From a virus (taxonomy: Duplodnaviria > Heunggongvirae > Uroviricota > Caudoviricetes), in the IMG/VR virus record IMGVR_UViG_2671180283_000015: a stretch of 5,266 nt of DNA; one strand, written 5' to 3'. Below are positions 431 through 5,078 of this stretch, piece by piece. The position numbers and the translations under genes were made by a program. The stretch's first letter is position 1; every line of letters starts with the position of its first letter. The notes below the pieces were generated by a model. The model was not told where the DNA came from. It was given only the letters and a program-made list of their open reading frames with translations, and made no database searches.

Positions 431-787
431 CTACCCCAGATGAGTAATCCGAAGTTCATCCATACCACAGGTCCTGGCTATTCTGTTGTACTCCTGAACA
501 AGAGCAAATAATTCTGAATTAGCCACCATGAACTCATCGCAAACCCTCTGTATAGCATCACTATTCAGAATAATAACGTCTCTTCCCGAAAGACGATCAG
601 GAGTACAGAACAAAACTGTCAAACGGCTGAAGGCCTTTGCTCGTTCTGCATTGACTATATCAATACGCTGCCTAAGGATGAAACACCCCGACGCCTCATC
701 AATATTCACTCTACCCACACCATATGAATGATAAATATTTAATGCTGAAAAAACCATTAGACCGTATAACAAACACTCAATCAACAC
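431..787 (-). CDS. Hypothetical protein in the AT-rich cargo slot (doubtful)
   Basis: The 118-aa frame is open but has a non-ATG first codon; the first ATG (757..755) has no clear Shine-Dalgarno sequence. It carries 3 AGA, 2 AGG and 3 ATA codons, and shows no recognisable motif. Confidence 0.3.
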   Translation of the reverse strand: MLIECLLYGLMVFSALNIYHSYGVGRVNIDEASGCFILRQRIDIVNAERAKAFSRLTVLFCTPDRLSGRDVIILNSDAIQRVCDEFMVANSELFALVQEYNRIARTCGMDELRITHLG

Positions 788-894
788 TTAACAGAACTTT
801 TATTTTTGACAAACATATAATATTTTCAACAATATCCTGAGCCAGGTATATTTCAGTATAAGGCTCTGCCGAAAGGAATCTGGAAGAATGAATA

Positions 895-2820: not shown

Positions 2821-3642
2821 CTATCGCGTTACCCTCTTTAACTGCCGCTCCGCCCATGCCTCTTCAATGTCAAACCGAACCACCAACGTATCGTAAAAGC
2901 GTTTCACTGATTTTTTCCACGTATCAAGCGTGATAGCACTCGTCACTTTGCGTATGGCATTAAATGCCTCCGTTGATGGTAGTCTTTCACAGCCACGACC
3001 ACCACAACGCTGGCAGTCTCTGATAACAGGCATACCACGTTTTACCGACTCTTCACGATGAATGGCGACACCACGCCCACGGCAGTCTTTACAGGCAGTG
3101 GAAATCTCCCCCTTCCCTTTACATTCAGGACAAGAAACTTTCACCACCTCCCGAATTTTTTTCCATTCTTCCCAGTAAGACGGATACACACCTTTCGTAC
3201 ACTTTGCCCATACTGGCGGCTTGCCATCCGGATACTGAACCTTGTTTGTAAAAACCTCGCTTTCAATAAATTTTTTTCCGTGACAGCAGGGGCACTGTTT
3301 TTTGCTCGCCGCGCTACGGGCATAATCTTCAAACGCATACGAAGCCATAATACGCATCACTGCCGGTTTTATTTCTGCCGGGAGTTTTCTTAACGCCGCC
3401 ACGCGATCACACCGACTGAGTGCATATTCTGTCAGCAATTCTGTTGCCCGCTCTCTGTCATTCATACTAATGCCCATTTTCCCAAGGAACGCAGAAAACC
3501 CCATCTCAGCCCGATTCTGTGTCATGCCCTGCGCGGCCATCACATCAGTGATACTCAGCGCATCTTTCGACGTTGAGGCCGATGCATCAGTCAGGCCGGG
3601 GGATTTTGGGGAGTAGTATTTCGGTAAATCTTCCAGTTTCAT
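2821..3642 (-). CDS. Q: Late-gene antiterminator Q (lambda-Q family) with an expanded CxxCxGxG zinc-binding region
   Basis: The 273-aa product shares N-terminal (KYYSPKSP...TDVMAAQGM) and C-terminal (TWKKSVKRFYDTLVV...VTR) blocks with lambda Q as recalled. The centre carries four CxxCxG-type repeats (CPCCHG, CPECKGKG, CKDCRGRG, CQRCGGRG). A pR'-like promoter lies immediately downstream. Confidence 0.85.
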   Translation of the reverse strand: MKLEDLPKYYSPKSPGLTDASASTSKDALSITDVMAAQGMTQNRAEMGFSAFLGKMGISMNDRERATELLTEYALSRCDRVAALRKLPAEIKPAVMRIMASYAFEDYARSAASKKQCPCCHGKKFIESEVFTNKVQYPDGKPPVWAKCTKGVYPSYWEEWKKIREVVKVSCPECKGKGEISTACKDCRGRGVAIHREESVKRGMPVIRDCQRCGGRGCERLPSTEAFNAIRKVTSAITLDTWKKSVKRFYDTLVVRFDIEEAWAERQLKRVTR

Positions 3643-4019
3643 TTTTTGACCTGCCCTTCAAGCATTATGGGGTAAATCTTCACCCCCAGACGTCCACCAG
3701 ATACTGGCTGAGCACGAACGATATTGATTTCATCAAACTGCTCATCGTCCATTAGCAACCCCGCATGCGTCAGCGCATCCAGCGGCGCTTTCAGAATATT
3801 GTCCAGGTCACGGCGGCGCTTATCCGGTGGTTCTGCAATAATTTTTATTGCCAGCCGTCCGGACAGGCTTAATTTCAAGTGCTGCTGGCGAACAATAAGC
3901 GCCACTGCCCGGCGATAACGCTCCCCGGCTTTTGATACAAAATATGTGCTGCCACGGCGTCGCCAGTAAGTGTTCACCGTCGGCGGGTAAGGCAAAACAA
4001 ATTCTATGCGTTCGGTCAT
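3639..4019 (-). CDS. rusA: RusA-family Holliday junction resolvase (crossover junction endodeoxyribonuclease)
   Basis: The 126-aa product has the RusA signature blocks PDKRRRDLDN...PLDALTHAGLLMDDEQ, matching the recalled E. coli RusA sequence PDRRRRDLDN...FDALTKAGFWLDDAQ. Its ATG at 4019 abuts the upstream stop, and its TGA overlaps the Q start as ATGA. Confidence 0.9.
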   Translation of the reverse strand: MTERIEFVLPYPPTVNTYWRRRGSTYFVSKAGERYRRAVALIVRQQHLKLSLSGRLAIKIIAEPPDKRRRDLDNILKAPLDALTHAGLLMDDEQFDEINIVRAQPVSGGRLGVKIYPIMLEGQVKK

Positions 4020-5078
4020 TTATGCTTTCCACTTCAGAACACCCGAATTTCTCGCGTGCATTAAAAAACGAATCAGCAACAACAGCTGACTGCCGTGTTT
4101 TTCTTCAAAATCTTTTACTCCGGCATGTAGTTTGTTATGGCATTTACGGCACAACGGAATAACAAACAAATCGTCAGCCTTTGTTCCCATCCCTCCCAGT
4201 CCATGACCAATGATGTGATGCGGATCATCTGCCTGATTACCGCACGTCATGCATTTCTGCGTTTTTACCCAGCGCGTGTATACAGGCATCTCTTCCCGTT
4301 GTGGTTTCTGGCGCTGGAGGTACTGAGCCGGAGACTCCGGATCAACGGCGATGCTTACTAACGTCTTTTCCTGGGGTGGGGGCTGTTGCTGGTGGACGTG
4401 AAGTGGCAGCGCAATATTTTTTGTGCGCTGCTTCAGTATGCTGATGGCTGTCTGTTCTCCCGGTACGATGTCACTCTCACGGTATACGGAGCGGATTTTT
4501 TCCACCGGTAATCCCAGCGAACGACGCGCTACTGCCTCAGGTAGTGCATCCACCACCTGATTGCAGGCCGCCCACCAGGATAATTCGGCCAGCGATAACT
4601 CCCTCTCCTGCGTACCGCTTATTGCGTGACGGATGACGTCAATCATCCAGGCAACCAGATTCTGCTGAGCAAGTTGATCGAGTGATTCTGATGTCTGGTT
4701 GCGCAGCTGGTTGTCACAGTGCCAGCACAACACCATCGCGCCGGTACCGTAACGGTGAATGACTGTTTCGCTGTGATGATAATCGCCGTGTGGCCACTGG
4801 CAGGATTTCACGTGACGTAATAACCAGTCAGACAGTGCACCTGCACCACCTGCTGCACGAATTACCCGCTCATCGCTGAAAAATGGTAGTAATGTTTTAT
4901 CCTCAGCCAACGGCTGGCTAACGGCTGCAACGACGCCGGACGGAAGACTGCGCATGTTTTTGGGTTCCGGTTCCACCAATATTCTGCCGTTATGGAATAC
5001 TGACATTGATTCACGGTCTGGCTTAACGATAACCAGACCGAGTTCCGGTACCAGAACAGGTCGAAGTAATACCCGCAC
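4020..5078 (-). CDS. 352-aa nin-region protein with a C-terminal HNH-like Zn/nuclease motif (DUF968/YdfU-like, tentative)
   Basis: Long ORF with a GTG start at 5078 preceded by GGAGG (5083-5087, 4-nt spacer). The C-terminus reads CMTCGNQADDPHHIIGH...LCRKCHNKLH, a CxxC..HH..CxxCH pattern resembling HNH nucleases; an N-terminal CWHC cluster is also present. Its stop TAA is directly followed by the rusA ATG. The family assignment is from memory of Qin-prophage YdfU and is unverified. Confidence 0.75.
   Translation of the reverse strand: MRVLLRPVLVPELGLVIVKPDRESMSVFHNGRILVEPEPKNMRSLPSGVVAAVSQPLAEDKTLLPFFSDERVIRAAGGAGALSDWLLRHVKSCQWPHGDYHHSETVIHRYGTGAMVLCWHCDNQLRNQTSESLDQLAQQNLVAWMIDVIRHAISGTQERELSLAELSWWAACNQVVDALPEAVARRSLGLPVEKIRSVYRESDIVPGEQTAISILKQRTKNIALPLHVHQQQPPPQEKTLVSIAVDPESPAQYLQRQKPQREEMPVYTRWVKTQKCMTCGNQADDPHHIIGHGLGGMGTKADDLFVIPLCRKCHNKLHAGVKDFEEKHGSQLLLLIRFLMHARNSGVLKWKA

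Follow-up and report, generated by a model that had tools for sequence, protein, structure and literature searches.

We analysed a 5,266-nucleotide (nt) stretch of DNA, here called the window, from a virus of the Caudoviricetes (IMG/VR record IMGVR_UViG_2671180283_000015). As every recognisable gene in it is carried by the minus strand, the window represents, in reverse orientation, a lambdoid prophage's late-regulatory region, and features on that strand are given below with descending coordinates. Our subject is the interval 431-890, immediately after two tRNA genes. It holds an AT-rich leader (894-710, GC content 0.31), which runs on from the tRNA-Arg gene, and a coding sequence (CDS) of 92 codons, from GTG 709 to the TAG at 433-431, which belongs to PHROG 2873, a protein family of unknown function. 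A 43-codon open reading frame (ORF) with a DUF3927 domain (395-264) and the small RNA (sRNA) STnc100 (198-8) follow. We conclude that the 92-codon sequence is a real gene and that its product is probably an accessory protein of the late operon, encoded in the slot that stx2AB occupies in Shiga toxin 2 (Stx2) phages.

A conserved gene of 92 codons

A preliminary description of the interval, made from the sequence alone, had noted one uncharacterised ORF of 118 codons. That frame is present (787-431) and is the only one above 70 residues in 431-890, but the conserved coding part is shorter than the product of 118 residues then proposed. Homologues from two other Escherichia coli lineages, represented by loci L003 and L004, share with the window an open frame of exactly 92 codons from the same GTG (VNID...), and the three lineages are 61-65% identical in amino acid sequence. 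Pairwise Nei-Gojobori estimates among them give synonymous divergence (dS) at saturation, 0.97-1.09, nonsynonymous divergence (dN) of 0.23-0.30 and a dN/dS ratio of 0.24-0.28. Differences at codon positions 1/2/3 number 19/18/41, 25/22/43 and 23/18/40 in the three comparisons (chi-square p = 0.0015-0.014), and the antisense frame is broken in L004.

Variation among close copies has the same character. Across 79 near-identical copies (from IMG/VR plus two annotated records, 21 haplotypes in all) the gene contains neither an indel nor a stop. Only 8 of the 279 sites of the 92-codon core vary, and five of these are third codon positions; in the flanks 19 of 222 sites vary (p = 0.005), so polymorphism is about three-fold denser in the leader and flanks than in the core. 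The in-frame 5' extension of 26 codons (787-710, with possible starts at GTG 787 for a 118-residue and ATG 757 for a 108-residue form) resembles the flanks, with 6 of 78 sites variable and these spread 2/2/2 over the codon positions. Furthermore, a stop or a frameshift closes the upstream frame in L003 and L004, leaving the equivalent of GTG 709 as the first possible start; only the last 30-75 nt of the leader can be aligned to these two lineages. Homologues in other genera are 91-99 residues long (91-110 over all relatives), and those of Citrobacter and Salmonella begin with an ATG three codons earlier. Because of the closed upstream frames and the dense, even polymorphism, we place the conserved gene at 709-431 and regard the extension as leader-like. 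On this comparative evidence, 709-431 is a genuine protein-coding gene under purifying selection, 787-710 is most likely 5' leader rather than coding sequence, and the likeliest product has 92 residues.

The preliminary description had left a choice between an accessory protein and a non-coding region, possibly an RNA. Of the two, the protein has stood and the RNA has not. There is no match to any Rfam 15 covariance model at E <= 1 within 431-890, the predicted fold of the leader is unremarkable (z-score -1.83) and conservation between lineages does not extend to the upstream region; the RNA reading was therefore rejected.

Composition and codon usage

The shift to AT-rich sequence that had been noted at 431-890 was borne out by measurement. 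GC content is 0.314 at 710-894 and 0.441 at 431-709, compared with 0.49-0.53 in the genes for the antiterminator Q, the DNA methyltransferase, RusA and the DUF968 protein, and GC at third codon positions is 0.42 in the CDS against 0.48-0.60 in these four large neighbours. Such deviant base composition is typical of acquired cargo. The codon usage of the gene is likewise as first described: 11 of its 93 codons are rare, and AGA, AGG and ATA together make up 8 of 93, compared with 21 of 1104 (1.9%) in the four neighbours (Fisher p = 0.001). The tRNA-Arg(UCU) and tRNA-Ile(CAU) encoded immediately upstream decode AGA/AGG and AUA, respectively.

Occurrence and annotation in E. coli

Copies of the interval occur in 1312 of 5426 complete E. 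coli genomes; in 1183 of those 1312 the copy is nearly full-length at 95-100% identity. RefSeq places no feature under any of the window-type copies listed. A further 126 genomes have copies at 60-80% DNA identity, which fall into the two other lineages. The L003 type (51 genomes) is annotated in RefSeq as a 92-residue hypothetical protein, WP_001017777.1, and its ribosome-binding site, AGGAG, is a good one; the L004 type (80 genomes, mostly Shiga toxin-producing E. coli, STEC) is unannotated. In L004 a gene for an AraC-type regulator of 241 residues (2254-2979) lies 90 nt 5' of the homologue, and a short upstream ORF ends in a TGA that overlaps the homologue's GTG start.

The exact sequence is also held in databases as 'hypothetical proteins' of 108 or 118 residues from more than 1000 contigs and, as these entries and the PHROG family predate our analysis, the protein is not novel in the sense first suggested. 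Among 50,697 GenBank phage records only one, mEp460_ev081, carries the gene, without annotation. In this phage the tRNA genes come directly after Q, with no methyltransferase gene between, and a 38-residue antisense ORF is annotated in place of the forward one. A scan of GTDB species representatives with an alignment of close copies matched a single E. coli genome, and among well-studied strains for which transcriptomes or ribosome profiles have been published we found none with the gene.

Protein family and predicted fold

The product matches PHROG 2873 over its whole length (E = 2.5e-58, 195.9 bits, residues 1-92 on profile positions 17-108), and all nine of nine diverse aligned relatives match the same profile. 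This is the gene's own family, although the profile carries 16 N-terminal positions that the comparative evidence marks as non-coding. A second PHROG family of unknown function, phrog_4827, is matched more weakly (E = 1.2e-5) and is a distant sister; the diverse relatives match these two PHROGs as well. An exhaustive hidden Markov model search of 1.84 billion representative proteins returned only 22 clusters, none of them with an informative domain fusion; P0029 and P0034, which are long, repetitive and eukaryote-like, were judged spurious. When the alignment was broadened, a second search brought in unnamed members from Citrobacter, Salmonella, Serratia, Morganella and Xenorhabdus, and protein identity to the homologues of other genera is 22-44%. 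Thus the comparison across related prophages that the preliminary description had proposed shows a gene conserved in three E. coli lineages and in other genera. Neither the 118- and 92-residue forms nor divergent homologues gave a significant match in Pfam, NCBIfam or PADLOC, where the only hits, such as RHIM and RsiG, were noise below threshold; PADLOC defence-system models did not match any of three family members tried. The sole lead from a sequence search of the PDB was a weak match to GapR/UPF0335 (E = 0.04), which we weigh below.

AlphaFold2, given an alignment of nine sequences, predicts an antiparallel two-helix hairpin with confidence (mean predicted local distance difference test score 88.9, predicted template modelling score 0.76). 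In the model, helices at 3-34 and 50-81 are joined by a loop with a conserved TPDR-x-SG motif and a short beta-like segment, and the C-terminal tail has an alternating hydrophobic pattern. Five residues (R23, P37, N64, Y74 and N75) do not vary within the family. The nearest kind of fold is the generic antiparallel helical hairpin, as in prefoldin beta, Rop-like and designed hairpins, and the hairpins of efflux adaptors. Six of the nine aligned members (all those from E. coli and Citrobacter, and the plasmid protein P0027) have isoelectric points of 4.8-5.7, and the remaining three (P0033, P0031 and P0028) have values of 6.9-9.9. The grand average of hydropathy is near zero or negative and, by inspection rather than with a dedicated predictor, no long hydrophobic stretch that would indicate a signal peptide or membrane segment is present.

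The gene lies in the slot of stx2AB

The preliminary description had placed a cargo slot directly after Q and the tRNA genes, and comparison with Stx2 phage Min27 agrees: homology between the two breaks there, and Min27 has stx2AB in its place. The order in Min27 is Q, ileZ, argN, argO, stx2A (96 nt after argO), stx2B, STnc100 (208 bits), AsxR and a SASA esterase gene. In a blastn alignment of the window with Min27, 1298-887 matches the tRNA region at 85.6% identity and 227-61 matches STnc100 at 71%, with nothing aligning between 887 and 227. Because only the flanks align, we read 659 bp of the window (886-228) as replacing 1368 bp that include stx2AB in Min27, and the interval 431-890 lies wholly within this slot.

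The upstream border is formed by tRNA-Arg (971-895, anticodon UCU; found by ARAGORN, and by Rfam at 68 bits). Before it stands a tRNA with anticodon CAU (1147-1072; ARAGORN and Rfam), annotated as tRNA-Ile in RefSeq and homologous to ileZ of Stx2 phages. This tRNA block has counterparts at 84-88% identity in 289 phage records, mostly of Stx2-converting phages. The downstream border is STnc100 (Rfam RF02076, 138 bits), which ends in a terminator at 38-19, the first in the window 3' of the 92-codon gene. In the published descriptions STnc100, with the overlapping Hfq-bound sRNA EcOnc27, lies about 75 nt 3' of stx2B (PMC12370729, PMC12711010), and a preprint relates it to the prophage sRNA PasD (bioRxiv 10.64898/2026.05.13.724894). 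A RefSeq genome with the same block continues with iraM on the opposite strand, a SASA esterase gene and a holin gene. STnc100 itself varies in number and annotation. The STEC prophage of L004 has five copies (1665-1877; 3637-4616), four of them in tandem just after the homologue of the ORF, and Min27 (L102, 5207-5412) has one 3' of stx2B. In L001 a partial 'hypothetical protein' pseudogene of RefSeq (7022-7147) lies on the opposite strand over the Rfam STnc100 match and is probably a mis-annotated sRNA.

The slot of the window and that of Min27 are therefore alike in setting, 3' of an ileZ/argN-type tRNA block, 5' of STnc100 and the SASA (NanS-p) esterase gene, and inside the Q-dependent late operon. 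Their contents, the 92-codon gene and the DUF3927 ORF here and stx2A-stx2B there, have no sequence or fold relation: a 92-residue hairpin and a 43-residue DUF3927 peptide stand against an AB5 toxin. The absence of an StxA- or StxB-like ORF, as first described, was upheld. No ORF scanned in 1-1200 matched a Shiga-toxin family of Pfam. The slot has no DNA homology to stx2AB, and Pfam gave no toxin match at E <= 0.1 for the two slot ORFs scanned, the 118-residue ORF and one of 67 residues (528-731), smaller slot ORFs being outside the scan.

Position and cassette structure across lineages

Across prophages of Citrobacter, Salmonella, Serratia and Morganella the gene keeps one position, in the segment that separates Q from the lysis genes. 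In Serratia, Q is followed by three tRNA genes, the homologue, two small ORFs and lysozyme; in Morganella the order is Q, a 64-residue ORF, an N6/N4 methyltransferase, tRNA-Asn (in one strain), the homologue, holin and lysozyme; and in Citrobacter the homologue is followed by a TerB-like gene, a DUF3927 ORF and holins. In Serratia, Morganella and Citrobacter the gene is bracketed by terminators. Serratia L092 has the gene at 4001-4300 between terminators at 3846-3870 and 4372-4393, Morganella L095 at 4001-4291 between 3834-3856 and 4306-4323, and Citrobacter L085 at 4001-4288 between 3926-3945 and 4328-4347; no promoter-like site was found between the upstream terminator and the gene in any of them. 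In E. coli L003 (gene 3032-3310) we found a downstream terminator at 3334-3351 and none upstream. The downstream terminator stems are alike among the four loci.

In the window lineage the two tRNA genes, the leader, the 92-codon gene, the DUF3927 ORF and STnc100 keep a fixed spacing in about 75 of 83 copies, and the methyltransferase gene is upstream in only about one third of the 83. The distance from tRNA-Arg to the ORF is constant in about 80 copies, and the DUF3927 ORF keeps its spacing in nearly all. The DUF3927 ORF (Pfam PF13064, E = 1.3e-26; PHROG 1470, 'TciB-like'; annotated in RefSeq) starts 35 nt 3' of the CDS with no terminator between, and the two are probably co-transcribed. An obligate pairing was considered and rejected: the window lineage links the two and Citrobacter also has a DUF3927 ORF, but none accompanies the homologues of L003, L004, Serratia and Morganella.

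Other elements carry more distant relatives. Members of the Serratia/Morganella-type (PHROG 4827-like) subfamily at L097 and L098 are in Mu-like prophages, directly 5' of DNA-circulation and baseplate genes. Distant homologues also lie at L088-L091 and L101, on IncF plasmids, and at L099 and L100. On plasmids of the type found in porcine enterotoxigenic E. coli and STEC they are flanked by a PapB-regulated K88-like fimbrial operon and by zitB, and a tRNA-Thr gene lies 580 nt upstream. Others are unannotated and follow bfpD-E-F-P-H-like genes of a type IVb pilus operon. The occurrence of relatives in Mu-like tail modules and on IncF plasmids implies that the gene moves as a small independent unit.

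Other features of the window

Reading in the direction of transcription, the window begins with genes for a DUF968/HNH protein (5078-4020) and RusA (4019-3639), followed by Q (3642-2821; Pfam PF03589, E = 3.8e-49), the presumed driver of transcription through the slot. Just 3' of Q is a strong, tR'-like intrinsic terminator (2738-2723), and late transcription must pass it by readthrough to arrive at the slot. An ORF of 65 residues (about 2594-2397, WP_000917767.1) and a gene for an N6/N4 DNA methyltransferase (2246-1197) come next, separated by a second strong intrinsic terminator (2410-2393). This terminator closes the 65-residue ORF, which resembles another small terminator-closed cassette and is kept beside the methyltransferase as far as Morganella (Q, 64-residue ORF, methylase).

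No sigma-70-like site was found within 2850-1150. In 1-1300 there were four promoter-like sites, against 1.9 +/- 1.2 in shuffled sequence. One of these, a weak and uncertain sigma-70-like match in the leader (829-802, TTGAAA-16-AAAAAT, 9/12), does not exceed the shuffle expectation; its hexamers are invariant in the 79 copies and its spacer varies.

Discussion

We think it probable that the gene encodes a soluble, mildly acidic, 92-residue hairpin protein that is the product of an accessory, 'moron'-type cassette in the Q-to-lysis late operon, in the slot equivalent to that of stx2AB. Under such a scheme, most transcription of the gene would come from Q-modified RNA polymerase reading through the terminators 3' of Q, and in other genera this readthrough would include the terminators that bracket the gene itself. 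The two tRNAs, derived from the same transcript, may then aid translation of a message in which AGA, AGG and AUA make up 9% of codons. Since the protein is small and simple, with no evident catalytic fold, signal peptide or membrane segment, it most likely acts by binding a protein of the phage or the host, probably as a small, oligomeric coiled-coil adaptor. Candidate roles are in lysis timing, in takeover of the host and in a benefit to the lysogen. The late expression that the preliminary description had attached to its protein alternative is not supported as worded there; we infer it from the terminators and the synteny.

Morons were reportedly defined by Juhala and colleagues in 2000 as extra genes of lambdoid phages that have signals of their own on either side; bor and lom of lambda are examples. 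The gene described here resembles them in being present or absent among related phages, in its deviant composition, in being bracketed by terminators in most lineages, and in its transfer to other elements, including plasmids and Mu-like phages. It differs in that the classic moron promoter is represented only by a weak candidate, and in that the terminator of the window comes only after the DUF3927 ORF and STnc100.

Several observations weigh against this interpretation. As the preliminary description had remarked, translation signals are poor: the Shine-Dalgarno sequence 5' of GTG 709, GGTGTGGGTAGA, is weak as judged by eye. The NCBI pipeline does not call the window-type and L004-type genes, in about 1260 genomes, and no paper mentions the protein in a literature search by accession numbers and PHROG identifier. 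In the window there is no terminator directly 3' of the gene. The homologues on plasmids without Q imply that late-operon control is not obligatory for the gene, and a local promoter in the AT-rich leader is possible, so expression in the lysogen is possible too. Finally, help from the tRNAs is open to doubt. Rare codons are also abundant in L003, which has no adjacent tRNA genes, and low GC content would by itself yield such codons; the reliance of the gene on the upstream tRNAs is suggestive only.

Other views of the product itself can be set against a 92-residue hairpin protein. It is unlikely, in our estimate, that the real product is the 118-residue form from GTG 787 or the 108-residue form from ATG 757. 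The frame is open from 787 in 79 of 79 copies, the lengths of the database entries and of the phrog_2873 profile (108) fit a longer form, and a 116-residue variant of the L004 type (P0021) has a similar N-terminal extension; however, the closure of the extension in L003 and L004, its dense and even polymorphism and the 91-99 residues of the homologues in other genera all favour GTG 709. That the region is a regulatory RNA or leader and the ORF fortuitous seems scarcely credible. The missing RefSeq annotation and the weak ribosome-binding site would fit this view, as would the setting of the region among prophage sRNA genes (bioRxiv 10.64898/2026.05.13.724894), but dN/dS well below one at a dS of about 1, homologues at 22-44% protein identity in other genera, the Rfam and leader-fold results and the confident AlphaFold2 model speak for a protein; an additional RNA role for the mRNA is possible. 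Equally improbable is a DNA-binding protein like GapR/UPF0335 (DUF2312). The family profile matches Caulobacter GapR chains over helix 1 and the loop (E = 0.04-0.2), but hhalign gives a probability of only 26%, no member matches Pfam GapR or another Pfam family, most members are acidic and GapR is absent from the structural matches. This lead was dropped after the hhalign result and the isoelectric points.

Further alternatives concern when and for whom the protein acts. The gene may be a moron expressed in the lysogen, with a promoter in the leader driving the 92-codon gene, the DUF3927 ORF and STnc100 as one prophage-state unit that serves the host, for example through a small regulatory connector. 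We consider this doubtful, though a real contender, and it overlaps our preferred explanation except for timing. The promoter-like site with invariant hexamers, the AT-rich leader, the lack of a terminator among the three elements together with their fixed spacing, and the detection of STnc100-type sRNAs in uninduced cultures (PMC12370729) are in its favour, and the plasmid-borne relatives without Q favour some Q-independent expression. Against it, the promoter matches are no better than those of shuffled sequence, the upstream terminator in Citrobacter is only about 55 nt from the start codon, and the Serratia and Morganella leaders have no promoter-like site. In phage T4 the holin is bound by RIII, a small, helical protein of the cytoplasm, and by analogy the product could be a lysis-timing factor. 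The small, soluble, helical protein would suit this role, and in Morganella and Serratia the gene stands directly 5' of the holin and lysozyme genes. In the window lineage, however, the DUF3927 ORF, STnc100, iraM and a 1.85-kb esterase gene separate it from the holin gene, and some relatives belong to Mu-like tail modules or to plasmids that have no lysis genes. As the interval between Q and S is a general insertion site, position alone says little of a role in lysis, and we regard this analogy as improbable. A bolder reading, to which we give only slightly more credence, is that the hairpin protein, alone or with the DUF3927 peptide, could be the functional counterpart of Shiga toxin in non-toxigenic lambdoid prophages: a late, Q-dependent and tRNA-aided effector that would alter the outcome of induction through lysis timing, host shut-off or a factor released on lysis. 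If true, it would point to a widespread and unrecognised class of small late-operon effectors, systematically missed by annotation.

Our preferred interpretation, an accessory cassette of the Q-dependent late operon, makes the gene one of an ordinary kind: it is catalogued in PHROG but uncharacterised, and it is under-annotated, as RefSeq calls it in one lineage (51 genomes) and misses it in two (about 1260 genomes), with the gene skipped in about a fifth of complete E. coli genomes. The finding overturns nothing and opens no long-standing question. However, E. coli acquires Shiga toxin through this Q-to-lysis slot of lambdoid prophages, and knowledge of its other occupants aids the reading of prophage cargo. 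The borders of this slot, the tRNA block and STnc100, are common to Stx2 phages and to a prophage type present in about one quarter of complete E. coli genomes, and the alternative cargo between them is a selected small protein gene. It is thus a defined candidate for the study of the accessory functions of the late operon.

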